64,000 nt of DNA, taken from assembly GCA_900317155.1 (NCBI GenBank), contig ONFO01000021.1, forward strand, positions 73,865-137,864, in the 5' to 3' direction. Both the position numbers and the translations under genes were made by a program. Positions 2,523-22,600 of the stretch are shown here, one piece after another. This DNA comes from an uncultured Bacteroidales bacterium (lineage in GTDB: Bacteria; Bacteroidota; Bacteroidia; Bacteroidales; F082). Position 1 is the stretch's first letter. Every line of letters begins with the position of its first letter. The notes under the pieces were generated by a model. It searched no databases, was not told the origin of the DNA, and was given only the letters and a program-made list of their open reading frames with translations.

Positions 2523-2556
2523 GGGCGGCTCTCTTCGGAGGGTTGCCCTTTCTTTT
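2523..2556 (+). terminator. Intrinsic-terminator-like hairpin that folds much better on the plus strand. It sits at the 3' end of the minus-strand defence operon.
   Basis: gggcggctctc-ttcg-gagggttgccc followed by tttctttt. On plus-strand RNA this gives an 11-bp stem (8 Watson-Crick plus 3 G-U) with a UUCG loop and U tail. On the minus strand the three G-U pairs become A-C or C-A mismatches. Confidence 0.5.
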
Positions 2557-4639
2557 AGAATAATTTCTTTATTTCCATTGGGTTATCTATGGTCTCGCCT
2601 CGTTTCTTCAACTCTTCCGCTTCCTTGCTGTCCCATAAAGCACCGACAAACCTAATATTCCCAGCCCTTGACATTACTTCATCGGTTATCGTGCTGCCAA
2701 TTGAAACCATGTTCTCCTTGGCTACATTTAATTCCTGAATGGCGAAATCAACCAGTATTGGGCATGGCTTTTCGTAATATGGCCTATAGCCAATTACTGT
2801 ATCGCATTTGAGATTGAAATGTTCAAGTGCCATTTCTATAAGCTCACGCTTTGCCTCGCTGATAATTCCAATTTTGATGTTGTTCTCTTTAGCCCAATCA
2901 AAGACCTCTCTCCATCCATCATATAGCCTGTATTGTGGGATAAGAGGATAAATGTCCTTTTCCCAGTTTTTTTCTCCTTTTGCGTTTTTACGAACTTCAT
3001 CGTCAGCCGATGTGTCGAAAAGGGTGTAATCGAAGTCAAGGATAAGACATTTTGTTTCCATGTCCTTCACTGGTGGAGCTTTATATTCTGGATGTCTGCT
3101 TCTGACTTTTGAGATTTTCAGTTTTTTGAACAACTCGATGATTTTTTTGGTGTCTTTGATGACAGTTTCATCGTTGTCCATCTTTTGCCTCATTTGGGCA
3201 TAAAGAGCCTCGTACACGGCTTCTCGTTCCTCGTCCGACAACTCCCTGCCTTTCCGCTTCGTTTCTTTCTCTACGGCCTTGTTTTCCAGCGAAAACATCA
3301 TATCTCTAACCATCATTGTAGTTATGCCAGAACAATTGTGGCCTTCAAAGATATTGCTGTCAAGGTCTTGAACTGCCCCAAAATGGTCATCATGCCCATT
3401 CGGACATTCCACAAGGTCACGGGGATAGGTCTCACGCAATCTGTCTCTATAAGGCTTGTATGAAAGATATTTGTAAAAATGGCATAAAGCAATGTGTCTA
3501 TAACAAGTCGCCCTTGCATCCCAATTCCTATTGTCGCTTATGTTTTTGCATAATGATTTTGCATCTAATGGGGTCGTTTGCTCCATTATGCCTTTAATTA
3601 TTTCTGGACTTTCCGAAAACTGCAATACATGAAACAACTGTTCAACACCATAAAACTCAAATCCTTTGAAATTGATAATGCAGTCTTCGTGATTACTTAA
3701 CACTTGGTTTTCAGGTTCCGCATGGCTGTGAAACTGAATACAATCTTTGAGAGGGTATTTATGCCATTCGTTAGGTTTGAGTTTTATTCCTCCAAGTATT
3801 TCAACCTCATCGAAATCCTCTACAGTATAAATGGGCTTTTGCTGGTTTTTCATCCATTTTAATTCAGTCGTTCCCTTGTAGCCCTTCTCCCACACACACC
3901 AGACATATTCTCTGGCTTCCGATTGGCTGTATTTTGGCACATCCACTGGCTTTGCCCTGCACACATCGAAAATGTTTTGGTATATCCTGACTGGAGGATG
4001 TTTCTTTAAGATGCCCTTGAAACTTTCCTCGCCAGACAAGAACTGCATAGGCATAAACAAGGCCACTTTCTTCTTGCAGATGTTGAGACAAGCCTGAACA
4101 ACAACATGGATGTCATCAGTGTATGGCAGCACTGAAACCACATCACACTTCTTTTTGGGCTTGTAATCGTCAAGGATGTCTTTGTCTGGCTTGTTTGGTG
4201 TCTTGCCGCTTTTGCGCATCACTTCCCAAACTGGGCTGTCGGCATCGTAGAAAGGCTCTGTTATTTCATCAGTAAAAGTTTCAGCATGAAGAATGTCCCA
4301 AATCACGTATGGATGGATGTCAAGGTCATCAAACTTTTTCTTGGGAGGGCGTTTTCTACTGATTTCTGACAGTTTTTTTTCTCCCTTGGCCACATCCCAA
4401 TACTTTCTGACAGTGTTGATTGAGATTTTGGCTTTTTTTGACACCTCCACCTTTTTGGCATTGGGGTTTTTCTTCAAGTAAGCCTTGATTTTATCAACGA
4501 TATTGGCACTTCTTTGGTGCTTCCTGTCGATGCCTCTGGTCTTGATGAAATAACGAATACCCTCAATGGTAACGCCGTTGTTTTTGGCGTTTTCGGCTGG
4601 GGTCTTCGTTTCGTCATATTTGATTTTACTGGTTCTCAT
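2555..4639 (-). CDS. 694-aa multidomain protein: N-terminal HTH-like region, degenerate Rossmann/methyltransferase-like module, NADAR (YbiA/DUF1768) domain, C-terminal HAD-superfamily phosphatase
   Basis: NADAR-like signature LSNHEDCIINFKGFEFYGVEQLFHVLQF...DAKSL...NRNWD...DLVECPNGHDDHFGAVQD. HAD motif I is LILDFDYTLFDT, with later IGIISEA and a C-terminal GST.TDE region. The MTase-like block EPFYDADSPVW...CDVVSVLPYTDD...YVWCVWEKGY has degenerate motifs I and IV. The ATG at 4639 overlaps the hsdR stop by 14 nt. Confidence 0.7.
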   Translation of the reverse strand: MRTSKIKYDETKTPAENAKNNGVTIEGIRYFIKTRGIDRKHQRSANIVDKIKAYLKKNPNAKKVEVSKKAKISINTVRKYWDVAKGEKKLSEISRKRPPKKKFDDLDIHPYVIWDILHAETFTDEITEPFYDADSPVWEVMRKSGKTPNKPDKDILDDYKPKKKCDVVSVLPYTDDIHVVVQACLNICKKKVALFMPMQFLSGEESFKGILKKHPPVRIYQNIFDVCRAKPVDVPKYSQSEAREYVWCVWEKGYKGTTELKWMKNQQKPIYTVEDFDEVEILGGIKLKPNEWHKYPLKDCIQFHSHAEPENQVLSNHEDCIINFKGFEFYGVEQLFHVLQFSESPEIIKGIMEQTTPLDAKSLCKNISDNRNWDARATCYRHIALCHFYKYLSYKPYRDRLRETYPRDLVECPNGHDDHFGAVQDLDSNIFEGHNCSGITTMMVRDMMFSLENKAVEKETKRKGRELSDEEREAVYEALYAQMRQKMDNDETVIKDTKKIIELFKKLKISKVRSRHPEYKAPPVKDMETKCLILDFDYTLFDTSADDEVRKNAKGEKNWEKDIYPLIPQYRLYDGWREVFDWAKENNIKIGIISEAKRELIEMALEHFNLKCDTVIGYRPYYEKPCPILVDFAIQELNVAKENMVSIGSTITDEVMSRAGNIRFVGALWDSKEAEELKKRGETIDNPMEIKKLF

Positions 4640-7600
4640 CCTTCTTCTCGTTCTCTTTCAACTGGAAATCATAATACATCGCCTTGGCCATTTCGCCCAT
4701 TACTCGCTTGTAAAATTCTTCATCCTCAAAGAGCTTTGAAAAAGCGTCCATCTGTTCCATATAACAGGCTTGCGCCACCTTGGAGAACTCTTTCGGGAAA
4801 ATGTCGTTGGCAAACATATTGCCATCGCTGTTCTTCGCCTGTTTCTTCAAGGTCTTGTTCGACTTCTGCAACTTGTCATAGATGGTCTCGACAATAACAC
4901 GGTCAGCCTCGGTGAACTTGCCAGCATACATGATGTTAATCTTGTCGATGATGTTCTTCAACAAGTCCCTGCTGACCTCCACGGGTTTGCCATCGCCGCC
5001 TTTCTCACCCTTGATGGTCTTTGTCTTCTCGGTCGGTGATAGCTTGATGCTTCCAGAAAAACCTTCGGTCAGCTTGTTGTTGATAAGTGCCAGTTTGTTC
5101 GTCAAATCGACTTTTTCATGGGGTGTCTTGGGCAACAGCTTGTATAGGAACTCGGTGAAGATATAGGTTTTGTATAGCTCGGCATCGAAAGTCCTTGCCA
5201 CTTGCGCCATGAAAGCATAGAAACGGTTGAAAGCCTTGACATTGAAGCGCAATCTGAACTGGTCTTCCTCTGCCAGCTCATTGAACAATGCCAGAATGGG
5301 CTTGTAGGCACTGGCCAGCTTGCCCAAATCAACACTGGACTGCTTCTTTGCAGAATATATTTTATAGACTTTCTCGACATCTTCATTGCTCCACAAATGG
5401 AAAGCATCAAGTATGGTCTTGTACTTGTAAACCATGTTCACATCAACGGCATCGGAAAGCAGTGTGTCTTCATAGAACGGCTCAAATGATGCCTTGATGC
5501 TGTCGGCTGTGTTGGCGAAATCAAGGATGTAGGTGTCAATCTTTCCAGCGCAACTACGGTTGACCCTCGATAGTGTCTGGACTGCCTTAACGCCTTTCAG
5601 CTTCTTATCGACAAACATTGTGTGCAGCAATGGCTCATCGAAACCCGTCTGGTATTTGTCGGCCACAATCAGCATATTGTACATGTCGGAGCCAAAGTAC
5701 AGGGGAAGGCTCTTCTCGCTTATATACAGGTCTTCTGTTGCGTTTAGTTTCGGCTCGGTGTATTCCACTCCATTATAGGTGACAGTGCCAGAGAAAGCCA
5801 CTAACGGGCGTACATCGGTATATCCTTTCTGCTTGCAATACTCCTTCATCAGGAAATAATACCTGACAGCATGCGCCCTCGATGGCGAAACCAGCATAGC
5901 TTTTGCCGTGCCGTTGATTTTAGTTAGTGTGATTTCCCTGAATTTCTCAACAATGACCGCTATCTTCTGTTGCAACACGGCTTCATGGTTGTCGTGGTAC
6001 TGCTTGATGGCCAATGTCGCTGGCGGTTCCTCGTATTCTGGGTTCTCGCTGATGGTCTTGGCTATCTCGTAGGATGTCTCAATGGTGGTGTAATATAAAA
6101 GAACATCTTTGATAAACTCTTCATCAATGGCTTGGCGCATTGAATAATGGTGGTAGGCATCATAACGGCCATCTGGCAACAGTTCTCCAAAGGTCTGCAA
6201 GGTCTTGGGCTTGGGTGTGGCCGTGAAAGCGTAGAAGAACAGGTTCTTGTGCTGCCCTTGGGTCAACAGGGTTTCCAGCATTTCGTCCATTTCGTCCCTG
6301 ACTTCCTCTTCGGTCTTTTCCTCCAGCTCGGCATACTCCCTCAATGCCTCGTCCGTGTCCGCAAGAGCAGCCTTCAGCTTTTCGGCTGACTTGCCCGACT
6401 GACTGGAATGTGCCTCGTCAATGATGATGGCGAAGTTCTTCCCAGCATGTTCGTCAAGTTGCTTGTAGATAAGTGGAAAACGGTGCAAAGTGGTGATGAT
6501 GATGCGTTTCTTGTCGTTGATGGCATCCTTCAGCTTGCTTGAATTGTCCTTATCTTCTATGGTCTCAATCTGGCCTTCGTAATGGTCGAAGCCAAGGATT
6601 GTGTTCTGGAGCTGCTGGTTCAGGATGCGCCTGTCGGTGATGACAAAGACGGACTGGAAGATTTGCTTGTCGTTTGTGTCGTGCAATGAAGCCAGCCTGT
6701 ATGTAAGCCATGCAATGCTGTTCGACTTGCCAGAGCCAGCACTATGTTGAATGAGGAAATTACGGCCAGCGGTTGCGTTCTTGGTGTCTGCTATCAGCTT
6801 CTCCACCACATCCAACTGGTGATACCTTGGGAATATCAATGAAGTGCTTTTTTCCTTGACCTGTTTGCCATTCTTGATTTTAATTTTTTCCTCTTTTTGG
6901 AGGCTGATATAGCCCTTGACCAGCGAAAGCAACATATCTCGTTGCAGAACCCTTTCCCAGAGGTATGCCGTGGGATAGCCTCCTTCGTTTAGCGGATTGC
7001 CGCCATCGCCAATGTTGCCAGCTCCGTTGCTGCCTTGGTTGAACGGCAAAAAGCGTGTCTTCTCGCCTCGTAGCCATGTGGTCATTTCCACCTCGTACAA
7101 GTCAACGGCAAAGTAAACGAGAATACGGGTGTTGAAACGGAAAAGAAGCTCTTTCGGGTCTCTGTCATTGATGTATTGGGTGATTGAATTGCCCACATCC
7201 TGACCCGTAATCTGGTTTTTCAGTTCCATCGCCACAATCGGGATGCCATTCAACGAAAGCACCATGTCAATGGAATTGTGGTTTTCGGTGGAATAAAAGA
7301 ACTGGCGTGTGCAAGTCAAGATGTTGCTGTTGTAGCGTTCAACCACTTCTTCGTTCAGTCCTGACGATGGGGCTGGATAATAGAAGTGGATGGCCACACC
7401 ACGGTCTTTGATGCCGTTGCGAAGCACATGTATCAGGCCGTAAGAAGCCACATCGTTCTGGAAAGTCTTGTAGAGTTGGCTTTCAGCATTGTCGCCGTAG
7501 ATGTTCTGGTAGCGTTTCCACATCTTCGGCTGGGTCTTGCTGATAAACTCCACAAGTACGGGCATATCAATTGCTTTGGCCTTGTCGTAGGTCTTCATGT

Positions 7601-7676
7601 CGCCCTTGCGATAGCCGCCTTTCGTAAGCAAAAAGGCTTCAATGTCGGCTTCAAAGTTCTTTTCCTTGGTTTCCAT
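4626..7676 (-). CDS. hsdR: Type I restriction enzyme, R (endonuclease/translocase) subunit
   Basis: 1016 aa. Walker A HSAGSGKSNS, DEAH box IIIDEAHSSQ, and the typical HsdR N-terminus METKEKNFEADIEAFL. Shares an operon with hsdM and hsdS. Confidence 0.95.
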   Translation of the reverse strand: METKEKNFEADIEAFLLTKGGYRKGDMKTYDKAKAIDMPVLVEFISKTQPKMWKRYQNIYGDNAESQLYKTFQNDVASYGLIHVLRNGIKDRGVAIHFYYPAPSSGLNEEVVERYNSNILTCTRQFFYSTENHNSIDMVLSLNGIPIVAMELKNQITGQDVGNSITQYINDRDPKELLFRFNTRILVYFAVDLYEVEMTTWLRGEKTRFLPFNQGSNGAGNIGDGGNPLNEGGYPTAYLWERVLQRDMLLSLVKGYISLQKEEKIKIKNGKQVKEKSTSLIFPRYHQLDVVEKLIADTKNATAGRNFLIQHSAGSGKSNSIAWLTYRLASLHDTNDKQIFQSVFVITDRRILNQQLQNTILGFDHYEGQIETIEDKDNSSKLKDAINDKKRIIITTLHRFPLIYKQLDEHAGKNFAIIIDEAHSSQSGKSAEKLKAALADTDEALREYAELEEKTEEEVRDEMDEMLETLLTQGQHKNLFFYAFTATPKPKTLQTFGELLPDGRYDAYHHYSMRQAIDEEFIKDVLLYYTTIETSYEIAKTISENPEYEEPPATLAIKQYHDNHEAVLQQKIAVIVEKFREITLTKINGTAKAMLVSPSRAHAVRYYFLMKEYCKQKGYTDVRPLVAFSGTVTYNGVEYTEPKLNATEDLYISEKSLPLYFGSDMYNMLIVADKYQTGFDEPLLHTMFVDKKLKGVKAVQTLSRVNRSCAGKIDTYILDFANTADSIKASFEPFYEDTLLSDAVDVNMVYKYKTILDAFHLWSNEDVEKVYKIYSAKKQSSVDLGKLASAYKPILALFNELAEEDQFRLRFNVKAFNRFYAFMAQVARTFDAELYKTYIFTEFLYKLLPKTPHEKVDLTNKLALINNKLTEGFSGSIKLSPTEKTKTIKGEKGGDGKPVEVSRDLLKNIIDKINIMYAGKFTEADRVIVETIYDKLQKSNKTLKKQAKNSDGNMFANDIFPKEFSKVAQACYMEQMDAFSKLFEDEEFYKRVMGEMAKAMYYDFQLKENEKKDENQ

Positions 7677-7701
7677 TGGATTGTATTGTGATTGAGTTTA
7701 A

Positions 7702-9534
7702 TTACAAGAAAATTTCTTCTTCGTTGTTTTCGTCAGGCATGGCTTCATCAATATCTTCCAGCTTCTTGTCTCGACCTGCAATTTCTTTTCCAGTAGCTTT
7801 TTCAATCAGGTCGAAAATAGCAGCTTCACGTTTGCTGAAATACGTCTCAAAGTCATCCTTCCTTATAGCTTCTACGTCTATCAAATGCGATTGGAGATAT
7901 GTATTCAGGTCTTCTGGAGAAACGCCGTGATTTCGTTCTATGCTGCTGATGTATCTTGTTGGCGCAACACCGCCAATAATACGGTTGGTTCTCGCATAGA
8001 TTGGGGTCTTATTGATGACAGAGTTCCATTTCTTTATCTCATAACCTTGTTGTGTGCAGTAATTGGCTGGAAAGATATGATGAATGTCTGTGGCTTCGTC
8101 AACATACATTGCAAAATCCATTTCCGTTCCCGTAATGAAATCCTTGCAGTGCTGTTTTAATATCAATGCCATGACACCTTTGTATGCAGCACTATTACGG
8201 GTCGTTAGTTGTCCTAATCTTGCGGCAAAGAAATTTGAACGTGCCACTGTTTCTGGCTTGTCATCATCGTCTTTTGCCCAGCGCATCAATCCTTGAACGT
8301 CATTGACGTATCTTGTTTCATTTGCACCTCCGTACAATTCGCCAAATACGCCACACCAATACCATTTGGCCAGTTTTGCCCTATTAGTGGAGTTATACCA
8401 TAAGTGTTTGTCTATGGCAAAAACAACAGAAAGCGGTATAAGCTGCGAAGTATATGGTAAATCAACTGACGTGTAAACGCCCTGTTCCTTGATGAATTTT
8501 ACTGCCTCCTGCAAACCGTCTATCAACTGGTTTTTGTACTTGTCATATTCACGATATTCCAGTTTAAGAACATCTTTCTTTTTGCAACTAACACCAGCCC
8601 GTTGGCCGCTTTGAACTTGCATATAGCTGTTCAACAGGGTAATCGCCGTGAGGAAATCCGTTCCAGTGAAAGCAGGTTGGCTGTTCTTGTATTTCATCAG
8701 GGCATCTTTCTTAAAACGTCCCCAAATCAAATCCCAGTCTTTTCTTAATTCAAAATTGTCGGCTGCGAAAGTTGCTGTTATTAGTTCAAACACTGTCAAA
8801 GAAACGCCTCCTTGGTTGACATTTTCAAACACTTGACAAACCGCCTCTTTTGGAACATCGTTACCCAGCTCAATCACGGGTATTTGATATTGCGACATGG
8901 GGTTTAATATCTTGTCGAAGAAAGCATCCCAGTTGTTTTCAGCCTCTTCCGTGTTGTGATACCTGCAATACTTTCTTTGCCATTGCATTGTGGCGGCAGG
9001 GTCAAATACGATATTCAACGGGAAACAGTGTTCCTTGTATTCCTGTTCTGGTGTCGAAAGGTCAAGTTTGATGTCTCTGCCAATATTTTCCCTGATTATT
9101 CTGTCTTCGGGAACTGAAATGACTGCATCTATTCTGTCGGTCAGCGTATCTAAACACTTGGGAATGTCCAAATAATAAAACCTTGAAATGGGTTTCTTTT
9201 TAAAATCCACTGTCTGTACCACCGATTTGCTGTACATGGAGCGGTAAATCGAAGTAATTCTTTGCTGACCATCCAGCACCAGTGTTTTCGGAATAACATT
9301 GGAATATGAGGCATCTACACCTTCAAACAATCGGTTCTTGAAATGAACATTATCGCCAGTAGCGTCCAGAAACATTGCCGCACCAATAGGATAGGCGTTG
9401 CTGATACTGGCTATCAAAGCTCTAATTCTATTGTCTTCCCATACCCATCCACGTTGAAAATCGGGTAGTTGAATTGTGCCATTGCCGATACTCTTTAGGA
9501 TGTCAGCTATTGGAGTGTCATTTGATTTTATCAT
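7702..9534 (-). CDS. DUF262 (ParB-like NTPase) plus DUF1524 (His-Me/HNH-like nuclease) protein. GmrSD-family, putative modification-dependent type IV restriction enzyme.
   Basis: N-terminal LPDFQRGWVWEDNRIRALIASISNAYPIG and LVLDGQQRITS motifs. C-terminal DIHHIFPANY motif. Confidence 0.85.
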   Translation of the reverse strand: MIKSNDTPIADILKSIGNGTIQLPDFQRGWVWEDNRIRALIASISNAYPIGAAMFLDATGDNVHFKNRLFEGVDASYSNVIPKTLVLDGQQRITSIYRSMYSKSVVQTVDFKKKPISRFYYLDIPKCLDTLTDRIDAVISVPEDRIIRENIGRDIKLDLSTPEQEYKEHCFPLNIVFDPAATMQWQRKYCRYHNTEEAENNWDAFFDKILNPMSQYQIPVIELGNDVPKEAVCQVFENVNQGGVSLTVFELITATFAADNFELRKDWDLIWGRFKKDALMKYKNSQPAFTGTDFLTAITLLNSYMQVQSGQRAGVSCKKKDVLKLEYREYDKYKNQLIDGLQEAVKFIKEQGVYTSVDLPYTSQLIPLSVVFAIDKHLWYNSTNRAKLAKWYWCGVFGELYGGANETRYVNDVQGLMRWAKDDDDKPETVARSNFFAARLGQLTTRNSAAYKGVMALILKQHCKDFITGTEMDFAMYVDEATDIHHIFPANYCTQQGYEIKKWNSVINKTPIYARTNRIIGGVAPTRYISSIERNHGVSPEDLNTYLQSHLIDVEAIRKDDFETYFSKREAAIFDLIEKATGKEIAGRDKKLEDIDEAMPDENNEEEIFL

Positions 9535-9562
9535 AACGTCAATATTAATCGGTTAAAAGCAA

Positions 9563-10030
9563 TCAGTATATCCTCATTACCCCTCTATTATCTGGTTCCG
9601 TATTCCATTGGACTTGCCAGCATCGACCGTCTATCTGGTCAAGTAGGATGAAGTTATACATGTTGTCGGTCGCATATAGAGTGAAGCGGCCACAGATAGG
9701 GTCATCAAAATACTCTGATATTCTTGGACTTGTATCAAGTGCTGTCTCAAACCTGTAATCACTTCCTTTTGTGCTAAACTGCACTTGCCAAATCTGGCCA
9801 GTCATTGTGTCCAATTTCAAGAATGTCCACATGTTCTGTGTCTTGAACAATTGGTATCTCGGCTCTCTCAATTGGTTCATATAGGCATCCATGTAATAAA
9901 ACATCAGCGTGTCCTTGGATGTAAGGTTAAGGTTCTTGAAGAAATCTTCTTCTTTGGATGTGGGCGATTGGGCATTTGCCGTAAAACCAATGCCGCATAC
10001 AATCATCAGTGTCATCAATAGTTTCTTCAT
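9563..10030 (-). CDS. Secreted 155-aa protein with an internal ~30-aa duplication (WQVQ repeats)
   Basis: Signal peptide MKKLLMTLMIVCGIGFTANA-QS. Two homologous segments: RYQLFKTQNMWTFLKLDTMTGQIWQVQFST and RFTLYATDNMYNFILLDQIDGRCWQVQWNT. Lies 28 and 33 nt from the neighbouring operon genes. Confidence 0.6.
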   Translation of the reverse strand: MKKLLMTLMIVCGIGFTANAQSPTSKEEDFFKNLNLTSKDTLMFYYMDAYMNQLREPRYQLFKTQNMWTFLKLDTMTGQIWQVQFSTKGSDYRFETALDTSPRISEYFDDPICGRFTLYATDNMYNFILLDQIDGRCWQVQWNTEPDNRGVMRIY

Positions 10031-10063
10031 AACATATCAGTTTTAATTGTTCCTTATGATTTT

Positions 10064-11035
10064 TTATTCTACACTCGCAATATAACTGGGCTTCATGTCG
10101 ATGGTCAGGGCGATAGATGTGTCATCCTCTGACACCCATGCTTTCTGGCTCTCGTCCCACAAGAACACGATAAGTTGAGGGGCTTTGACCGCATTGATGA
10201 CCACACATAGGCGATAGTTGTCTTTGTCGGCCATCATTTCGGAATGTTCGTTTTGCGTGATATGTACGCTAATGGTGCTTTGAGCAAGTCCCTTGGCTTC
10301 TAATTTCAATTTGATTTTCCCTTGCCATGCATCCAAATCCCAACCCAAGTTTTCCTTTTCTCTGGATTTCACTTTGTAGCCTTGCGCCTCGTATTGCTTG
10401 ATTACATAGTCAACGGCGGCTTCTTCAACCTGTTTCCTTGCCTCGGCATTGACTTGGATGGCGTGCTTTGACACATACTTTTTATCAGCAGAATAGTTCT
10501 CGATATAGTCGATAACCTTGTCTCTGAACTGGCGAACTTTCTTTTCGTCTGCATCAGCGTACCAGACATTTGACTGTCCAAGAAATCCCACTCCTTGGGA
10601 TTTCGCTCTCGGCACAAGAAATGTCCTTTTGTCCACAGGCAGCAAAACACCGTCTGAACTTTTGGCAACGATATTGTAAGTGTATTCCTTCCGCTCTTTC
10701 CTGTCGGATGATTGGAAGTCGGCGTACACGGTGGCATGATTGTACCAACCCACCACATAAGTACCGCTGCCTTTGGGTCTATTGGCAATCCATACTACCA
10801 GCACATCCTTCAGGCTTTCTTGGTCTGCCTTGCATCCTTTGTCGATGCGTTTCAAGTTGATTTTGCCAAACCTGACAGGCTGGACATAACCATAATACTT
10901 GCCTTTCAAATTCTGGAAATTGTAGGCTTCGTGCTTTTCTTCATTTCGATAGCTACCGCCGCCCACAATCATATCTTTGGCTGAATTGCCCTGATAATGG
11001 GTCATCCATCCGATGTTTGCAAACAAAACTCTCAT
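10064..11035 (-). CDS. Putative nuclease: unassigned ~190-aa N-terminal domain plus C-terminal DUF3883-type (PD-(D/E)xK restriction-endonuclease-like) domain
   Basis: The C-terminus AVDYVIKQYEAQGYKVKSREKENLGWDLDAWQGKIKLKLEAKG...NYRLCVV matches the DUF3883 D...ExK pattern. The start overlaps the hsdS stop by 4 nt. Confidence 0.7.
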   Translation of the reverse strand: MRVLFANIGWMTHYQGNSAKDMIVGGGSYRNEEKHEAYNFQNLKGKYYGYVQPVRFGKINLKRIDKGCKADQESLKDVLVVWIANRPKGSGTYVVGWYNHATVYADFQSSDRKERKEYTYNIVAKSSDGVLLPVDKRTFLVPRAKSQGVGFLGQSNVWYADADEKKVRQFRDKVIDYIENYSADKKYVSKHAIQVNAEARKQVEEAAVDYVIKQYEAQGYKVKSREKENLGWDLDAWQGKIKLKLEAKGLAQSTISVHITQNEHSEMMADKDNYRLCVVINAVKAPQLIVFLWDESQKAWVSEDDTSIALTIDMKPSYIASVE

Positions 11036-12333
11036 ACGACCTCCTTTTTGCCCGTGATATATTCGTATATGATTGATTTCTTGTAGTCTTTCAATTCCTC
11101 TATCTTCTGCTGCTTAATGGCTATCATGGCATCAATATCAGAACATTTACTGTCAAGATAATTTCCAATTGCCTTTTGCTCTTCAATTGGTGGAACTATT
11201 ACGGATGTTGAACCAAGAAGCCTTTGGGGAACACTAAACACTTTGACCCCATTGACCACAGAACGAATTTGTATTCTCCAACAATCAGTTTTGAACAAAT
11301 AACTAAAGTAATTGTTGGGATTATCATTCAGATATTTGGCTATGATTGTGTGATAACCAGCGAACATGGTAATGTCTCGGTCGATATAAATGCAGTTTCC
11401 GCAACCATCCAAATCCTCTGATGTGTCAGCAAATATTAAATCACCGACTTTTACGAGTGATGAAGCGTTTCCTTCAAGGTAATAATCAGGAACAAACCGT
11501 ATCAATTCATCTTTAATGGCTGTGCCTGTGTTTGACTTGGAATGTATCTGGCCATAACTAATTACTGGAATACCTTTCTGCACCAAATCAGCCTTGGTAA
11601 TTGAAAGTCCTTTTCCAAGTTCATACAATTGCTTGAAAGGCTCGACCTCCCATCCTTCAGGTATTTTCCCAATCCATTCAACACCGCTGTCTTTCATTTC
11701 GACATCAGGGTTCAAGCCTTTGCAAACGGCCTCGGTAATAATGGCTTGCTTGTAGGCTTTCAGTTCCTCAATAATTTTTTCCTGCAATGACACCATTTCG
11801 TCAACCTCGCCACATTTCTGGTCAAGGAAATCGGCTATGCGCTGCTGCTCTTTTGATGGAGGTAAAATAAACTCAAGTTCTGATATTTTATTCCACCTTA
11901 AATCGCAACTACGCTCCCTAATGCCTGTCGCCAGAGCAACAAAAACATTGGTCATGGCTAAAGAACGAAGATAATAAACAACATATTCAGGTATTGCATC
12001 ATATTTCGGGGAGCATACGATTAGAACAGGAGAACCTTTGCCTGTTGATTTTGAAACACCCATCGCACCAGCAAAACCATCCATCCCATGAATTACAATA
12101 TCTCCTTTGTTTATTCCTTGATAACCGATTTCTTTATCCGACATTGTAAAGCCGTCAGTCCTTCTTTCACTACGAAGAACAACTTCGCCATCACGAAAAC
12201 AGGTTATTACTTCATCGTCTTCTCTAACAGGACGTTTGTGAAGTAATAACACATTCTTGCCTCGTTCAACATTCCACTGTTCTGGAATAGCTTTTAACCA
12301 CGGGATGCCGCTGTCTTTCATTTGTCTGCTCAT
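11032..12333 (-). CDS. hsdS: Type I R-M specificity subunit
   Basis: Two target-recognition halves that each open with KDSG(I/V)xW(L/I)xxIPExWxVE. Two conserved helical spacers (LPPSKEQQRIADFLDQKC..., VPPIEEQKAIGNYLDSKC...). 4-nt overlaps with both neighbours. Confidence 0.9.
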   Translation of the reverse strand: MSRQMKDSGIPWLKAIPEQWNVERGKNVLLLHKRPVREDDEVITCFRDGEVVLRSERRTDGFTMSDKEIGYQGINKGDIVIHGMDGFAGAMGVSKSTGKGSPVLIVCSPKYDAIPEYVVYYLRSLAMTNVFVALATGIRERSCDLRWNKISELEFILPPSKEQQRIADFLDQKCGEVDEMVSLQEKIIEELKAYKQAIITEAVCKGLNPDVEMKDSGVEWIGKIPEGWEVEPFKQLYELGKGLSITKADLVQKGIPVISYGQIHSKSNTGTAIKDELIRFVPDYYLEGNASSLVKVGDLIFADTSEDLDGCGNCIYIDRDITMFAGYHTIIAKYLNDNPNNYFSYLFKTDCWRIQIRSVVNGVKVFSVPQRLLGSTSVIVPPIEEQKAIGNYLDSKCSDIDAMIAIKQQKIEELKDYKKSIIYEYITGKKEVV

Positions 12334-14096
12334 CTTCCCATGATTTTGGCCATTAACGCTGCTTCCTGTTTGTCAAGCTCCTGAAGGTGGCTGTAGATGT
12401 CATCACTCTTCCGTGGCTCAACATACTTGTAGAACTCACGGGTGAAGGGTATTTCATAGCCTATCTTGCTCTTGTTGGTGTCAATCCAAGCATCTGGAGC
12501 GTATGGCAGTACATTCTTTTCCATGTAGGCATCAATGTCTTCCTTGAACGGTATGCTTTCCGTATCACGGCGGCTGCTGTCAGGCTGGGGCTTGCCTTTC
12601 TTCAAGATGGGCTTGCCAGCCTCGTCAAGCAATGGTCGTTCAACAACGACCTTGGTATATTTGAAGTCCTCGTTGTCCTTCACTTTGCTTTCAACAATCA
12701 GGTCGCCATCAGTGAAAACACCATCCTTGAAGGCGTTGTAGGCTTCCACCACCAGACGGATGCAATCTTCCGAAAACTCGTTGCGCTTGTTGCCTATGGG
12801 TTTACGGCGTTTCACACAGCATTTGGAGGCATCAATCAGTTGCACCTTGCCAGCCCGTTCAACGGCCTTGTCCTTGCTGACCAGCCAGATATAGGTGGCT
12901 ATGCCAGTGTTGTAGAACATATCGTTAGGCATTTGAACGATGGCCTCCAGCCAGTCGTTTTCAATCAACTCGCCACGGATTTCGCTCTCGCCGCTCCCAG
13001 CATCGCCCTTGAACAATGGCGAACCGTTCTGGATGATGGCCATTCGGCCAGTTTCCTTCAACTTGGCCGTGCCATTCATCACAAAGAGCTGCTGGCTGTC
13101 GCCGATGGCTGGAAGCCCAGCACCGAAACGCCCAGCCTTGCCCTGCTTGTGTTCCTTCTCGACATCGGCCTTTTCGTTCTTCCATTCGATGCCAAAAGGC
13201 GGATTGCTGATGATGTAGTCGAACAGATAGCCTTCAAACTTGTCATCGTTCAATGTGTTTCCGTATCTCATATTGTCGGCATTGCCGCCCTTGATAAGCA
13301 TATTGGCCTTGGCAATGGCAAAGGTCTGTTCGTTCAACTCTTGTCCAAACTCGGTAAGGCTGGCCTCTGGGTCGATGGCCTTCAGTCGCTCGTCCATGCA
13401 GTCAAGCATCTGTGAGGTTCCCATCGTCATATCATAGATGGAGGCCGTGATACCGTCTTTCTTAATGCGCTCACGGTCTGGAGCAATAAGCAACTCCACC
13501 ATCAAATAAATGATGTCTCTGGCCGTGAAATGCGCTCCTGCCTGTTCGTCATAGCTTTCAGAAAACTTTCTTACCAGCTCTTCAAATATGTAGCCCATAT
13601 CAACGGCACTGATTTCATCGGCTCCCATATACGCCTTCTTGCTGCAAAACTCTTGGATGACATTATAGAGGATGCCATGATTGCCCAATTTGGTGATTTC
13701 CTTATCGAAGTCGAACTTTTCAATGATGTCGATGACATTGTTGGAAAAGTGGTTCAGGTAGCTACGGAAGTTGTCGGTCAGGTTCTCTGCATCGCTCAAC
13801 AAGCCTTCAAAGGTAAATGGCGAAGTGTTGTAGAAGTCGAAGCCAGAGGCGGTTTTCAGAAAACCATCCTTGACCTTAACACCTCGTTTGTCAAGCGTCT
13901 TGTCCATGTCGATGACCTTTTGCTTGGTCTCGGCCAGCGTGTCGCTAAAACGCTTGATGACACACATAGGCAAAATGACATTGCCATACTCATGTGGCTT
14001 ATATGTTCCAACCAGTTTGTCTGCAATTGCCCAGATAAGGTTGGCTTTTTCTTGTATGTTGACGGTTGTCCTTCTGCTTAAAACATCGGTTTGCAT
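12330..14096 (-). CDS. hsdM: Type I R-M N6-adenine DNA methyltransferase subunit
   Basis: 588 aa with an HsdM N-terminal domain. Catalytic motif IV is IISNPPFG, and the AdoMet region is D.TMGT. Confidence 0.95.
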   Translation of the reverse strand: MQTDVLSRRTTVNIQEKANLIWAIADKLVGTYKPHEYGNVILPMCVIKRFSDTLAETKQKVIDMDKTLDKRGVKVKDGFLKTASGFDFYNTSPFTFEGLLSDAENLTDNFRSYLNHFSNNVIDIIEKFDFDKEITKLGNHGILYNVIQEFCSKKAYMGADEISAVDMGYIFEELVRKFSESYDEQAGAHFTARDIIYLMVELLIAPDRERIKKDGITASIYDMTMGTSQMLDCMDERLKAIDPEASLTEFGQELNEQTFAIAKANMLIKGGNADNMRYGNTLNDDKFEGYLFDYIISNPPFGIEWKNEKADVEKEHKQGKAGRFGAGLPAIGDSQQLFVMNGTAKLKETGRMAIIQNGSPLFKGDAGSGESEIRGELIENDWLEAIVQMPNDMFYNTGIATYIWLVSKDKAVERAGKVQLIDASKCCVKRRKPIGNKRNEFSEDCIRLVVEAYNAFKDGVFTDGDLIVESKVKDNEDFKYTKVVVERPLLDEAGKPILKKGKPQPDSSRRDTESIPFKEDIDAYMEKNVLPYAPDAWIDTNKSKIGYEIPFTREFYKYVEPRKSDDIYSHLQELDKQEAALMAKIMGR

Positions 14097-14155: not shown

Positions 14156-14163
14156 CAAAAATA
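14156..14163 (-). promoter_or_regulatory. Bacteroides-type -7 promoter box (TATTTTTG on the minus strand) for the hsdM operon
   Basis: Matches the TAnnTTTG consensus, ~60 nt upstream of the hsdM ATG (14096). Confidence 0.55.
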
Positions 14164-14267: not shown

Positions 14268-14291
14268 CAGCGTGATTAAAACGTGGTAGAT

Positions 14292-14924
14292 ATGAAAAAC
14301 ACAGTTTTACTTTGTAGATGCTCAACGAACAGGCAGGACTACAATCGCCAGATTGACGAATTGACCGATTATTGCGAAAAGAACAATTGGAACATCCTGA
14401 AGGTTTTCGCCAACAAAGTCAGTGGCGCAAAGAAGCTTGAAGAAAGGCCAGAAATCCAAGAAATGATTTCGTTTGTCAAGAACAATCAGGTGGACATGGT
14501 GGTGGTGCTTTCCATCGACCGCCTTGGGAGAAACACACTTGAAGCATTGAAACTCATTCAGCTACTCAACGAGAACCATATTGCGCTTTATGTCAAGAAC
14601 TACAATCTTTGCACCCTCGATGAAAATGGCAAGCCCAATCCAGTAGCCAGCCTTATTTCGACAATCCTACTTGAAGTCGCCCAGATGGAAAGATTGACCA
14701 TTGCAGAACGCATGGAAAGTGGTAGGAATAGATATATCAAGATTTGTAAGGAAGAAGGCATCAAAATGGGAAGGCCATCCACTTACAGGAAAAGTGATGA
14801 CAAGTATAAAGAGCAATATTCCAAGGAAATTTCATTGCTCCGCAAGAATATCAGCCTCCGCAACGTCCAGAAGCTCACAGGCACATCCGTTGGGACATTG
14901 AGGAAATTGCAGAAATTTGTGTAG
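14292..14924 (+). CDS. Serine recombinase (resolvase/invertase family) with C-terminal HTH
   Basis: Catalytic-serine region VLLCRCSTNRQD, plus SIDRLGRN and AQMERLTIAERMESGR motifs, and a C-terminal HTH (NVQKLTGTSVGTLRKL). I moved the start from the track's GTG at 14283 to ATG 14292 because of the promoter position. Confidence 0.85.
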   Translation: MKNTVLLCRCSTNRQDYNRQIDELTDYCEKNNWNILKVFANKVSGAKKLEERPEIQEMISFVKNNQVDMVVVLSIDRLGRNTLEALKLIQLLNENHIALYVKNYNLCTLDENGKPNPVASLISTILLEVAQMERLTIAERMESGRNRYIKICKEEGIKMGRPSTYRKSDDKYKEQYSKEISLLRKNISLRNVQKLTGTSVGTLRKLQKFV

Positions 14925-15777: not shown

Positions 15778-15945
15778 CTAAACTTCGTATTTAGATTTTA
15801 CGGTTGACCAATAACTCTTTAAGCTGTCGGCAATAGCTTTACGATGGCTGGTTGATAACTGTCTGCCCTTCAGCGATTTTGAAATCTTGCTTTTGGTCTC
15901 TTCTGATAGTTCTCGGTACTGTCTTTTGTATTGCTGTTTCTTCAT
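15778..15945 (-). CDS. 55-aa basic protein with two NUMOD3-like DNA-binding motifs
   Basis: MKKQQYKRQYRELSEETKSKISKSLKGRQLSTSHRKAIADSLKSYW. Both LSEETKSKISKSLKG and LSTSHRKAIADSLKS resemble the NUMOD3 motif of homing endonucleases. The longer track ORF (to 16119) runs through promoter-like DNA, so I chose the internal ATG at 15945. Confidence 0.35.
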   Translation of the reverse strand: MKKQQYKRQYRELSEETKSKISKSLKGRQLSTSHRKAIADSLKSYWSTVKSKYEV

Positions 15946-16076
15946 GGGTAAAGTTTTGTAATTCAAATTATTATTCAAGTTATTACTGGATTTATCCATA
16001 AATAGGAGATAGGAACAAAAAAGATGCTGGGAAAAGTAAGTATTCGGAACCTGTTGCGGCGAAAACAGAATTGCGG

Positions 16077-16084
16077 TATCTTTG
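16077..16084 (+). promoter_or_regulatory. -7 promoter box TATCTTTG
   Basis: TAnnTTTG, ~107 nt upstream of ATG 16191. Confidence 0.45.
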
Positions 16085-16190
16085 CACCGCAATAAAACAT
16101 CAAGAGTGTCAGTAGGCACACCAACCGAGTTAGAGTTATACTACGGTGGTAAAATGATGTGAGTTAGGAACTTAACTAAAACTATAACTT

Positions 16191-17430: not shown

Positions 17431-17451
17431 AACTTGGGTATAACTTGGGTA
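17431..17451. repeat. Tandem direct repeat AACTTGGGTA x2 (11-bp period)
   Basis: Read directly: aacttgggta t aacttgggta. Confidence 0.8.
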
Positions 17452-17769: not shown

Positions 17770-19212
17770 TTAGTAATCGAACAAATCCTCCATCGTAATC
17801 GGTATCGGCGAGATTTCAGAATACATGTTCTCCTGGAGTCCGTATGTGGTCACGATACTCGCTTGGATTCCGCCTTTGTGACCGGTTTCCTTTTGGAAGG
17901 TTTCCATACGTCGAACTATATTTCTGTATTCCTTCTCGGTAAGAGTGTAATCGTCTTTAGAGTATTTCATTTCACAAATGGTGACAATTCCGTCGGCCCG
18001 ATCAATAACCAAATCTATCTGAACCGCGGGCTGACTGTTCTGGCTGCGCCACGAATAATACTCATGACGGATGGTGTCAAGACGCAAGCCGCGTACAATC
18101 TGTCTCACATGCCACAAGCAGACGCGTTCAAATGTGAGCCCGTACCAATTATTTTGCTCTGGGGTGCCAAGCGCATTGCGCCAGAAATGTTCGTCCGTCA
18201 CTCTTCGTGTGCAGAATTTGTAATGGAAAAGCGAGAAGAAATCAACCAATTGATAGATACCGTTTTTCTGTAGTGTGCCGTTGTTATATCTTCGCACAAA
18301 ATCACAATGTTCCAAGTCGTCCAACATGTCGGTGAGATGTCCGTTGTCTGGAATCTTCAATTCGTTAGCTATCTCAATACGAGTATAGCCATCTCTACGC
18401 GTGCAAAGCAAACGGATTATTTCCATATAGGCATCAGCATTTTTGAACAAGGAATTGAAAAGCCTTTGAAATTCATTTTCTAGTTCGGGCTCTGCTGAAA
18501 AGAAAAGCGTGTCAATGTTATCAGGAACATTTTTCTTTGGGTCAAGCAGGCTTAGGTAATATGGTACACCTCCCATAATCATGTATGCCTGCAATACGGC
18601 AATCCTTGGCCAGTGGAATTTCCTGCTTTTAAGGTATTCTTCGGTTTGCCCTAGCGAGAACGGTCGCAGATGCATGGTATGTGTGGTGCGTTTGTGAAGT
18701 CCGGCTTTGTTGTTGACAATATTACGCATCATCCAAGAGGTGGCGGAGCCACACACTACAAAGTATATGTTGTCAATCCATGAAGCACGGCTGTTCCAAA
18801 ACAGATCCAGGGCTTGTAAGAAGCCAGAGCGAGGTGTGTCAAAGCAGGGGAGCTCGTCAATGAATACGACCAAACGACGTTTGCGATTCCTGTTTTTTCG
18901 TTCCAGCAGTTCTGCGAGTTGTGTAAATGCGCCAATCCACGTGGTGGCTTTCTCACCTTTATATCCATAACGTACCAAAGCATTGTAGAAAGCCTCCATT
19001 TCTGTTTCTCTTGACCCTTCTATAACGCCAGTTGCGTAAAAGTCAAACTGGTCTTTGAAGAAATTTCGGATTAAGAAAGTCTTACCGACACGACGGCGAC
19101 CATATAAGGCAATGAACTCGCTTTTTTCTGATTCAAAATAGTCCGCGAGCTTTCCCAGCTCTGCTTCTCTGCCTATTATCTTTTCCATGTGTACAGTTAT
19201 TTGTTGCTGCAA
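17770..19212 (-). CDS. AAA-type ATPase, Arch_ATPase plus DUF234 family
   Basis: Walker A LYGRRRVGKTF, Walker B VVFIDELP, and a C-terminal DUF234-like region. Confidence 0.8.
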   Translation of the reverse strand: MQQQITVHMEKIIGREAELGKLADYFESEKSEFIALYGRRRVGKTFLIRNFFKDQFDFYATGVIEGSRETEMEAFYNALVRYGYKGEKATTWIGAFTQLAELLERKNRNRKRRLVVFIDELPCFDTPRSGFLQALDLFWNSRASWIDNIYFVVCGSATSWMMRNIVNNKAGLHKRTTHTMHLRPFSLGQTEEYLKSRKFHWPRIAVLQAYMIMGGVPYYLSLLDPKKNVPDNIDTLFFSAEPELENEFQRLFNSLFKNADAYMEIIRLLCTRRDGYTRIEIANELKIPDNGHLTDMLDDLEHCDFVRRYNNGTLQKNGIYQLVDFFSLFHYKFCTRRVTDEHFWRNALGTPEQNNWYGLTFERVCLWHVRQIVRGLRLDTIRHEYYSWRSQNSQPAVQIDLVIDRADGIVTICEMKYSKDDYTLTEKEYRNIVRRMETFQKETGHKGGIQASIVTTYGLQENMYSEISPIPITMEDLFDY

Positions 19213-19687: not shown

Positions 19688-22600
19688 ATGAAGAACTTAC
19701 TAAAATCTTTATTCCTGTTTATCGCTCTCTTCGCCTTCACACAAGGCGTTTGGGCGGAGACCTTTATCACCGATGTGATGGTCATCTCTGGCAACCAAAG
19801 CCAAACTGATGGTTACAAAACCCAATATCAAAATGAGGGTTGGACGGTTATCGACAACGACCTGAACGCGGGTGCAGGCGGCAACTTTATATACTTGCTC
19901 TATAAGACGAATGAAAGTTCGGGAAGCAGTGACACGGCCGTCACGGGCTTCTATCTCAAAACGGGGAATGACGATCATCCCAACTCCATAACCCACGACG
20001 GACACACCTACAGCCTCGTTCCTGCGGTCGGTTCCAACGACCTCAACTGCGGGGCCAGTGGTGCCTACATCTTTCTCTATTATACCAAGGAAGCCTTTTC
20101 ACCGGGTCGCATTGTCACCGACATCTTCTTTAACAACAATTCAAATGGTGCATTGGGTGCCAATGGTAACACATCCAGTGGCTTCGACCTCAACAGCGGT
20201 GCGGGCGGCGACTACATCTACATGCACGTTGTCACCATCACTACCGATGACATCATTAACGTTTACACGGAAGCCGAGTTGAGGAATGCGGTGATGCTCA
20301 ACGATGCCAACATCCGGATGATGGCCGACATCAATATTAGTTCGGAGGTTGAAATCAACAACAACCGTATGGTCACGCTCGACCTGAACGGCCACACGCT
20401 CGACCGTGGCTTGAGCAGTTCCACCAATTACGGCCATGTGCTGAAGGTCATCAGCGGCAGCACGCTCACCATCAACGATGCCAGCGGTGACAACAGCGGC
20501 ATCATCAAGGGAGCTTACACGGGACAAGGCGGAGGCATCCGCAACTATGGCACAATCATCATCAACGGCGGCACCATCCGCGACAACCATAGCGGCACCA
20601 AGGGCGGCGGCATTAACAACCACAACGGAGCCTCGCTCACCATCAACGGCGGTGTCATCACGAATAACGAAGCGCAAGACGGCGCTGGCATTTATAACGA
20701 AGCCAACGGAACGATAACGATCAATAATGGCTCCATCACTGGCAATACCACTAACAGATATGGTGGGGGAGGAATCACCAACTACGGTACCCTTGCCTTA
20801 TGCGGCGGCACGATCTCCAACAATACCGCCATTATGGATGGTGGAGGCATTTGGACCGACAAATCACTTACTGTCAATGGGGCTACCATAGAGGGGAATA
20901 GCGCCAAAAATGGCGGCGGCATTTGCATCTCCCATGGAACGACCGATCTCACCAACGTCACCATCAGCGGCAACACTTCAAAAGACGGCGGTGGCATCTA
21001 CATCTATGAAGACGGCACCCTCACTTTCAACAGCGGCTCCATTTCTGACAACACGACTACAGAGTACGGTGGAGGTGGCATTGCCAATCACGGCAACACT
21101 ACGATTATCGGTGGATCCATAACCGGCAACACCGCTATGGAAAACGGAGGGGGCATCTGGAGTGGAAAGACACTTACCATCAAGGGAGGCACTATCACGG
21201 GCAACCGCACTGGTAACGGCAGACTTGGCGACGGCGTCCATTTCTATGGTGGTACCTTCAATTTGGAAGGCAATCCGCAAATCTATGGAAATCTGAAAAC
21301 CAATGGACAGCCGGGTACTAATGCCTTTCTCCCAAGTGGCAAGAAGATTACCGTCAGCGGTGCCTTCACGGAAGGAGCCGATGTGAATATTGCCATGGAA
21401 AACCATGGCGTTTTCACTACGGGCTTCAAGAGCCATAACACTGTTTCCCCTGTTGCGATCTTCACACCCGACAACGCCACTTTCTATGTAACTTTGGATG
21501 GCGAAGAAGCACGTTTGAATATCGACCTCAGTGTGGTGTCGTATGTTGATCGCGCATGGGATTCAGTGAACCGAGTAGTGACAGCGCAGGTCAAGACATG
21601 TACCAACTTCACCAAATTGGAGGGCAGCAACTCCAACAGTTGCACTGAACTTGGCGACGGGTGGTATGTGGTTTACAAAAATGTCAGCTACAAGAAATGC
21701 TTGAAGATGGTTGGCGACGTGCACCTCATCCTTGTGGACGGGGCCACGCTCAACGTCAAGGATGGCATCTACATTAAGAAGGACAATACCTTTACTGTGT
21801 ATGCGCAAGAGGCTGGGCTGGGCAAGATTTATGCCCACCCTGATAGCGGCCCAGGCATCGGTGGCATGAAAAACAAAACGGCTGGGCATTTTGTCGTCAA
21901 AGGCGGTATCATCGACGCCAGGGCAGGTGCGAACAGAAACGCTGGCATCGGCGGGGGCTACGACCATAGTGGCATCCAAAGCGTCACCATATATAGCGGC
22001 AACGTCAAAGCCGTAGGCGAAGATGATGGTGCTGGCATCGGCAAAGGAAAATATAACAATGTCCATGAAGTTGTGACCATCTACGATGGCGATGTGTATG
22101 CTGAAGGTGGCGATTTTGGTGCAGGTATCGGTGGCGGCTTGGAGCGAGGCAATGGCGAAGTCATCATCTGGGGCGGCAATGTGAAAGCCAAGGGCTATAG
22201 TGGTGCAGGCATTGGAGGGGGATGTGGAGGAGACCAAGACAATCCTATCACCATTCATGGCGGCACCGTCTATGCCAAGGGCGGCGCCGGTGCAGCAGGT
22301 ATCGGTGGGGGAGATAGCTATGCCTATGCGCATTGTGACTTCTTTCCTCTCCAAGGAGGTCTGGCTGGAACCATTACTATCAACGGTGGCAACGTCACAG
22401 CCATCGGCGGTTATCTTCACGGTGCCGGTATAGGTAATGGAGGTGCACCTGAAAGTAGAACTAGAGGAAGGATTACCATTAACGGAGGTTTTGTACAAGC
22501 TTATACTGATGATTATAGAGATTGTACAAGTTCGGCCATTGAAGCGGGTGATGACTGGGGATACATCCATATCAACGGCGGTGAGGTCGTTGCCATATCC

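Follow-up and report, generated by a model that had tools for sequence, protein, structure and literature searches.

Type I restriction-modification (R-M) operons with embedded effector genes are a known arrangement. Among the neighbours of GmrSD genes, type I domains show the strongest enrichment, and the GmrSD-family gene rloF of Campylobacter jejuni occupies the space that separates hsdS from hsdR (cited in PMC4619093). TgvAB, encoded inside the type I operon of Vibrio cholerae VPI-2, has been shown experimentally to restrict phages with hypermodified cytosines (PMC11411939), and BrxU has the same role inside BREX (bacteriophage exclusion) loci (PMC8565348). In YenY4I, a modification-dependent enzyme examined by experiment, and in McaZI-like DUF3427-DUF3883 fusions, the catalytic domain is DUF3883 (PMC6765204). 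NADAR proteins remove ADP-ribose from DNA, and orphan phage copies of them defeat DarTG1 (PMC11825919). Here we analyzed a 64,000-nucleotide (nt) stretch of DNA from an uncultured Bacteroidales bacterium (contig ONFO01000021.1, positions 73,865 to 137,864; hereafter the window, in which all coordinates are given unless another locus is named). On its minus strand it carries a type I R-M operon with four additional genes. The reading that we favour, with a probability of roughly 0.6, is that the genes form a nested mosaic borne by an integrative element of about 20 kb.

According to the list of open reading frames (ORFs) in the window, the cluster comprises seven co-directional minus-strand ORFs at 2555-14096. 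In order from hsdM, they encode proteins of 588, 433, 323, 155, 610, 1016 and 694 amino acids (aa), and the successive junctions measure -4, -4, +33, +28, +25 and -14 nt. These lengths and junctions agree exactly with an initial annotation of the cluster. Its domain calls were essentially right when compared with Pfam, PADLOC and NCBIfam, except that Pfam did not detect DUF1524/GmrSD_C in the 610-aa protein, and the exact gene set is, as it had proposed, not a described system.

By domain content and motifs, hsdM, hsdS and hsdR read as an intact type I R-M system. The methyltransferase subunit HsdM (588 aa; 12330-14096) has HsdM_N and N6_Mtase domains, a PADLOC MTase_I match at E 3e-221 and an NPPF motif. 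The specificity subunit HsdS (433 aa; 11032-12333) contains two Methylase_S target-recognition domains and matches PADLOC Specificity_I over its full length. The restriction subunit HsdR (1016 aa; 4626-7676; TIGR00348) combines HSDR_N, ResIII/SWI2_SNF2 and T1R_D3 domains, with the D..ELK motif of an N-terminal PD-(D/E)xK nuclease and the DEAH motif of a superfamily 2 helicase motor. In such a system, host sites would be methylated by HsdM and HsdS, and unmethylated incoming DNA would be cut. A repeat search inside the operon returned no significant repeats and no hsdS-type inverted repeats that would indicate phase variation. GC content at third codon positions was 0.62-0.63 in hsdM and hsdR and 0.36-0.53 in the other five genes, with hsdS at 0.36, and this split between hsdM/hsdR and the remaining genes fits a mosaic origin.

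To place the operon among its relatives, we scanned metagenomes with HsdR and recovered 80 loci at 54-100% identity, 72 of which were informative in that both hsdS and hsdR were present; as a sample of this HsdR family the set is unbiased. The hsdS-hsdR junction was free of inserts in 28 of the 72 loci and carried inserts of 0.5-9.5 kb in the other 44 (61%). Almost every insert ORF (64/65) was co-directional with the operon, and most belonged to recognized single-gene defence or abortive-infection families: Fic/SoFic accounted for 25 of the 65 ORFs, ApeA-HEPN for five and GmrSD for three, with AbiH, AbiGi/ii, Abi_alpha, Schlafen-AlbA2 and a RecD-like helicase among the others. In this HsdR family, single-gene defence cassettes are captured at the hsdS-hsdR junction, a hot spot with rapid turnover. 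A second variable slot was observed in the hsdM-hsdS gap of many loci (L114-L139, L161 and L166), with inserts of 0.45-1.7 kb.

This turnover is visible among the closest relatives of the window. In one locus (L002), hsdM, the 323-aa gene, the 155-aa gene and hsdR are 97-99% identical to their window counterparts and hsdS is 38% identical. The slot of this locus has an additional 270-aa ORF, and its GmrSD gene is non-orthologous to that of the window (25% identity over 100 aa) and occupies the same position (L002 11414-14112 compared with window 7702-9534). The exchange of one GmrSD for a non-orthologous one at the same position suggests selection for that function. Another locus (L098) combines a 99% identical hsdR with different slot genes (36-1801), namely a lipoprotein variant from the 155-aa family and then a 435-aa protein, which appears PD-(D/E)xK nuclease-like on direct reading of its sequence, with an IIIENK motif. 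Elsewhere the slot holds the 323-aa gene alone (L004) or a 44% identical homologue of it with two other ORFs (L011). Searches of the 80 HsdR-sampled loci with hidden Markov models found the 323-aa family in none and the 694-aa family in one (L095), which is the same element. Slot turnover and the rarity of these two families together indicate that the seven-gene set is not a conserved system.

The first slot gene of the window (10064-11035) encodes a 323-aa protein with two domains. The C-terminal one (10064-10450) is a DUF3883/NOV_C PD-(D/E)xK nuclease domain (PF13020, E 4e-10), and the N-terminal one (aa 1-177; 10505-11035), which carries no family annotation, is predicted to read modified DNA. 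Full-length relatives are widespread across phyla, and the family alignment keeps the catalytic triad D...ExK, with no variation at E246 or K248 and almost none at D233. With the full-length model, Foldseek matched only nuclease domains, of Hjc and of SPARDA-type PD-(D/E)xK proteins. The N-terminal 177 residues had no Pfam match even at E 10, whether to DUF3427, to a PUA-superfamily sensor or to any other family, and a profile search found none among PDB sequences. Modelled alone, this domain reached a predicted local distance difference test score (pLDDT) of 85.5, and YTH, EVE and TgMcrB-N, the 5-methylcytosine-binding domain of Thermococcus McrB, made up about 30 of its top 50 Foldseek matches, at weak E values of 0.2-2. 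Domain architecture provides the stronger argument. The domain occurs in about 1900 clusters (1901, at 50% identity), and its other fusions place it next to an AAA_5 GTPase, where McrB has its reader, between SRA and HNH_2 domains, or with HSDR_N or TPR repeats. Because it takes the reader position in McrB-like, SRA-HNH and HsdR_N architectures, it most likely serves as a reader here.

The genomic neighbourhoods of the family are strongly enriched in R-M genes. In seven loci, which come from unrelated taxa, a type III Mod-Res pair immediately precedes the family member, and in an eighth (L017) one gene intervenes. In at least 7 of 80 genome loci the member is either inside a type I operon or follows one; other neighbours include AbiH, TIR, Fic and BrxL. 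The type III cassette, in which Mod (EcoP15I_C) and Res (RE_endonuc) are followed by the 323-aa-family gene, has nearly the same layout (at about 5000-10960) in L012, L014, L015, L017-L020 and L023, which represent Anaerovoracaceae, Campylobacteraceae, Traorella, Clostridium, Pelotomaculum, Syntrophaceticus and Brevibacillus, and this suggests that the trio spread horizontally and recently. In one locus (L056, 11001-15572), a 1523-aa protein with Sacsin-like and NOV_C domains, a bacterial NO VEIN-like protein, is encoded directly 3' of the 323-aa-family gene. On the evidence of motifs, models and architectures, the most likely identity of the 323-aa protein is that of a type IV nuclease dependent on modification and equipped with a new reader domain: the N-terminal domain would read modified DNA and the C-terminal domain would cut it. 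Since it coexists with type I and type III methyltransferases that form N6-methyladenine, this base is a less likely target than a hypermodified base or a modified cytosine.

A second putative type IV enzyme is encoded in the same slot, at 7702-9534. This 610-aa protein has a GmrSD_N domain (PF03235, E 2e-29) with the DGQQR motif (VLDGQQRITS), and it matches PADLOC HEC-05 over its full length, at a modest E of 1e-19. A C-terminal His-Me nuclease domain is suggested by the His-Me-like motif DIHHIFP...N...N and by the HEC-05 alignment. The protein is plausibly a nucleoside triphosphate-dependent nuclease of the GmrSD family that acts against modified DNA. The initial annotation had drawn attention to its presence here; GmrSD enzymes embedded in type I loci had already been published (PMC4619093, PMC11411939). 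The 323-aa and GmrSD-family proteins would both attack DNA whose base modifications evade the type I enzyme, and would so provide complementary coverage of the kind demonstrated in experiments on TgvAB, from the type I locus of Vibrio cholerae, and on BrxU, from BREX.

Between these two genes lies the third occupant of the slot, a 155-aa exported protein (9563-10030) that matches no family in Pfam, PADLOC or NCBIfam. Read directly, its sequence begins with a cleavable signal peptide (MKKLLMTLMIVCGIGFTANA, with predicted cleavage before Q) and contains two internal repeats, around FLKLDTMTGQIWQVQF and FILLDQIDGRCWQVQW. A remote Pfam search with the mature protein at E 10 returned nothing usable. 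The family is large, with more than 1300 clusters in Bacteroidales that fall outside any Pfam family, and it recurs in the hsdS-hsdR slot in five independent configurations, represented by the window and L002 lineage, L098, L111, L143 and L176/L177. In the last of these, the homologue is 41% identical and stands beside a 70% identical hsdR. We therefore withdrew the idea that the 155-aa gene is a random passenger, as the same slot is occupied in all five configurations; its association with the slot is real. We speculate that it could take part in phage exclusion at the cell envelope.

The slot layer of the mosaic thus consists of the 323-aa enzyme, the exported protein and the GmrSD-family nuclease. 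The last ORF of the cluster (2555-4639), which encodes a 694-aa protein with NADAR and HAD domains, belongs to a different layer. Alignment with 28 relatives resolved it into four modules. A helix-turn-helix (HTH)-like region (aa 1-100; 4340-4639) is conserved across the family, with a weak Pfam HTH_24 match, and is retained in variants of 1215 and 1079 aa. It is followed by a degenerate methyltransferase-like domain recognized from the alignment (aa 105-270; 3830-4327), a NADAR domain (aa 295-452; 3284-3757; PF08719, 37.8 bits against a cut-off of 35.1) and a HAD-IA phosphatase domain (aa 488-694; 2555-3178; HAD_2, PF13419, and Hydrolase, PF00702). The HAD motif DxDxT is intact (LDFDYT), and the closest solved relatives of this domain are small-molecule phosphatases, including the phosphoglycolate-phosphatase-like PDB entry 2hdo. 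A remote Pfam search at E 10 with the N-terminal region returned nothing usable. Most relatives keep methyltransferase motifs I (EPFCGxGS) and IV (NPPY), and both are likewise found in a stand-alone 285-aa protein that follows hsdR in L002. In the window protein and the clade closest to it, these motifs are replaced by EPFYDADS and SVLPY, and the methyltransferase-like domain is probably inactive in the window protein. Some relatives add an ADP-ribosylglycohydrolase (ARH) domain or a full Eco57I-type methyltransferase.

Homologues of the 694-aa gene are found directly 3' of type III R-M genes (L082 and L086), of a 1550-aa DUF4011 helicase-nuclease (L083/L084) or of another type I R-M system (L176/L177). 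In L175 the homologue lies beside a divergently transcribed Eco57I-type methyltransferase gene, and in L178 it has no adjacent restriction gene. A recombinase gene, for a resolvase or an integrase, is near all of these homologues and WYL_2 is near almost all. Varied restriction cargo in a constant recombinase context identifies the 694-aa gene as a backbone gene of cargo-swapping integrative elements, and not as part of the restriction operon. We rejected the view that it is an hsd-linked accessory, given the unrelated cargo in sister elements and its presence in 1 of the 80 HsdR loci. In the Alistipes element of L176/L177 (3548-13648), the order is hsdM, hsdS, a 153-aa gene and hsdR, followed after 1 nt by the gene for the 1215-aa variant, with the architecture HTH-NADAR-HAD-NADAR-ARH; this variant lacks the methyltransferase-like domain, and the element apparently lies beside a Mg-chelatase (comM-like) gene.

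The carrier itself can be outlined from both sides of the cluster. The exact 694-aa protein is present on six public contigs with the same layout (L001). On L001, a gene for a tyrosine integrase that has an arm-binding domain is located 3.6 kb past the 694-aa gene, shortly after the point where the window ends. On the opposite side, a serine recombinase (resolvase) gene of the backbone (14283-14924, plus strand; PF00239) is divergent from hsdM, and its homologues in sister elements L082-L084 are 57-59% identical. Two repeats of the 9-mer ACCCAAGTT (17431-17450, minus strand) mark one putative element end, and three copies lie just past the integrase (L001 17105-17187); the 9-mer is otherwise almost absent. 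These clusters are probably arm-type integrase sites at both ends of an element of about 20 kb. Within it, a 113-aa ORF with a weak NUMOD3 motif (15778-16119, minus strand) has homologues of 35-43% identity between the NADAR-HAD gene and the integrase in sister elements, and may be an excisionase-like backbone gene. A search of the window for tRNA genes found none. Just outside the element are genes for a 480-aa ATPase_2/STAND-like NTPase (17770-19212) and for a 2054-aa beta-helix protein with a type IX secretion system sorting domain (19688-25852).

What the backbone protein does can be approached from its precedents. Because of the NADAR precedent and the ancestral orphan methyltransferase, we favour counter-defence or self-protection: by analogy, the 694-aa protein most likely reverses ADP-ribosylation and does not act as a backup for restriction. 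As the third layer of the mosaic, it would protect element or host DNA from ADP-ribosylating toxins. Its steady position 3' of the cargo keeps a cargo-supporting role in consideration, and we weighed the alternative that the protein is a defence component, either a DarG/DS-32-like NADAR antitoxin paired with an unrecognized toxin or an accessory that keeps cargo or host DNA working under phage ADP-ribosylation. The gene does stand immediately 3' of helicase-nuclease restriction cargo in five of seven independent contexts, at gaps of -14 to +95 nt. The protein is also similar to the DS-32B NADAR anti-phage family (bioRxiv 10.1101/2025.01.08.631726), some of its relatives carry an ARH domain, and the family was absent from viral contigs in IMG/VR. 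The similarity is weak, with the NCBIfam DS32_2 match at 42.8 bits, far under the cut-off of 240. No DarT, phosphoribosyltransferase (PRTase) or other toxin family was detectable among the neighbours of the gene, the intact orphan methyltransferase of its relatives, with NPPY, is a typical anti-restriction device of mobile elements, and the gene is linked to the element backbone (resolvase and small ORFs) rather than to one cargo type. We consider a defence role unlikely, while allowing it a modest chance.

To the initial annotation, which had noted one promoter, the cluster looked like a layered defence module whose extra genes may serve as backups if the type I enzyme is inhibited. Part of this picture stands, in that a type I R-M system is accompanied by extra co-directional genes, and that the GmrSD-family and 323-aa proteins are plausibly modification-dependent nucleases that complement a type I enzyme blocked by methylation. 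A single unit in which the extra genes are guardians that fire on type I inhibition, in the manner of PrrC or PARIS, is improbable on present evidence. The tight spacing and overlaps of the genes do favour such a unit, a published type IC locus has an embedded PrrC (PMC12707154), and the order hsdM-hsdS-155aa-hsdR-NADAR/HAD recurs in the diverged Alistipes element. Against this stand the exchange of slot genes between loci with 99% identical hsdR and the unrelated cargo that the 694-aa gene follows elsewhere. The 323-aa family, absent from the HsdR-sampled loci, and GmrSD also occur stand-alone or with type III R-M, BREX and other systems (PMC8565348). Searches of all four extra proteins with Pfam, PADLOC and NCBIfam found neither the N-terminal ABC-ATPase domain nor the C-terminal anticodon nuclease of PrrC and RloC, and nothing resembling a PrrC-like sensor of type I inhibition was seen among them.

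Transcription signals could neither split nor join the cluster. The Bacteroidetes-type -7 promoter motif TATTTTTG (14156-14163, minus strand) lies about 60 nt upstream of hsdM and matches the consensus TAnnTTTG, as the initial annotation had reported, but four further same-strand matches fall within the cluster (at 13808, 4811, 3346 and 2647) and the window holds 55 matches where 44 are expected, which is near chance frequency. Scans of 1.5-15.5 kb for sigma-70 promoters and intrinsic terminators were at chance level. The hairpin noted after the last gene is present (2523-2548, 7 nt past the last stop codon), but we dropped it as a clear terminator because shuffled sequence is equally stable (z -0.32). 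It is from gene spacing that we infer co-transcription of the seven genes.

Least probable of all is that the extra genes are non-defence passengers, selfish insertions or genes of unrelated function tolerated at a junction that accepts insertions: some 155-aa homologues lie in glycogen-metabolism and lysine-fermentation operons, many 323-aa homologues adjoin housekeeping genes and the 694-aa methyltransferase domain has decayed, but all ORFs are intact with conserved catalytic motifs, other slot occupants mostly belong to recognized defence families, one GmrSD has been replaced by another in the same position, and R-M genes are strongly enriched around the 323-aa family.

Several observations weigh against our own reading of a nested mosaic with two type IV enzymes in the slot and a separate backbone gene behind it. 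The 155-aa gene is kept in the slot down to 58% hsdR identity, for which the mosaic model gives no account. The 694-aa gene overlaps hsdR by 14 nt and its Alistipes homologue starts 1 nt after hsdR, an arrangement that functional coupling to the restriction cargo would explain as well; the TAnnTTTG match at 4811-4818, inside the cluster, could for its part drive the 694-aa gene independently. On the side of the enzymes, the Foldseek matches of the 323-aa N-terminal domain reach template modelling (TM) scores of 0.22-0.37, and Pfam did not detect GmrSD_C/DUF1524 (PF07510) in the 610-aa protein, even in a remote search at E 10.

If the nested mosaic is correct, gut Bacteroidales build part of their defence by nesting: an element carries a restriction system, which in turn carries further restriction genes at a hot spot. 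Occupied in 61% of loci, the hsdS-hsdR junction is a practical hunting ground for new defence genes of the gut microbiome, with a bearing on phage therapy and on the ecology of crAss-like phages. The leads that emerge are the new reader domain, the NADAR-HAD backbone gene and the exported slot protein. We put forward only tentatively, as a joint proposal that may well fail, that the 323-aa N-terminal domain founds a large family of modified-DNA readers (about 1900 clusters) and that the HTH-methyltransferase-NADAR-HAD protein is a hallmark shield of small Bacteroidales integrative elements with an exchangeable slot for restriction cargo. Were this true, the first would define a new type IV specificity class, one regularly found in the company of type I and type III R-M systems, and the second a many-sided shield able to undo ADP-ribosylation for any cargo or recipient that the element encounters. 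A confirmed reader domain would widen the set of enzymes that recognize modified bases, which are useful as epigenomic tools, and the NADAR-HAD fusion would extend conflicts over DNA ADP-ribosylation from phages to integrative elements.

Compared with described systems, the position of the extra genes recalls the Escherichia coli prr locus and RloC, where an effector gene occupies the same intergenic position of a type I operon (PrrC between hsdS and hsdR). Unlike PrrC and RloC, the window genes do not have the ABC-ATPase and anticodon-nuclease architecture and show no sign of activation by type I inhibition. The 694-aa protein recalls the orphan phage NADAR protein AdfN and the antitoxin DarG1 (PMC11825919), with which it shares a NADAR domain, here encoded without a cognate DarT on a mobile element, as well as the weakly similar DS-32B. 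It differs from all three in being a four-domain fusion, extended by ARH in some relatives, whose gene lies on an integrative element instead of a phage and in a fixed place 3' of restriction cargo; its activity here is a prediction.

The 323-aa protein follows the plan of YenY4I and McaZI (PMC6765204), in which a sensor domain precedes a C-terminal DUF3883 PD-(D/E)xK domain and which are often encoded in defence islands or beside methyltransferases. In contrast to those enzymes, its sensor is neither DUF3427 nor a Pfam PUA domain but weakly YTH/EVE-like, and the protein is half the size. For the 610-aa protein, BrxU and HEC-05 in BREX or Hma loci (PMC8565348) offer a parallel as type IV enzymes nested in a methylation-based system. 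The surrounding system is here type I R-M, and the similarity is modest, at the HEC-05 E value and Pfam result given above.

Close counterparts of the locus are those of TgvAB and RloF, where a type I hsd operon likewise contains a GmrSD-family (DUF262) gene that points the same way as the hsd genes. Coverage of modified-DNA phages that escape the type I enzyme has been demonstrated for TgvAB and is proposed for the others. Whereas TgvAB consists of two proteins, the GmrSD-family enzyme of the window is a single chain, and it is accompanied by an exported protein and by a further putative type IV enzyme to which it is unrelated. The host is a member of the Bacteroidales, and a small integrative element carries the entire cluster as cargo. 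The locus represents a variation on an already described theme, in which effectors are embedded in a type I R-M operon, and here that operon sits within a mobile element.

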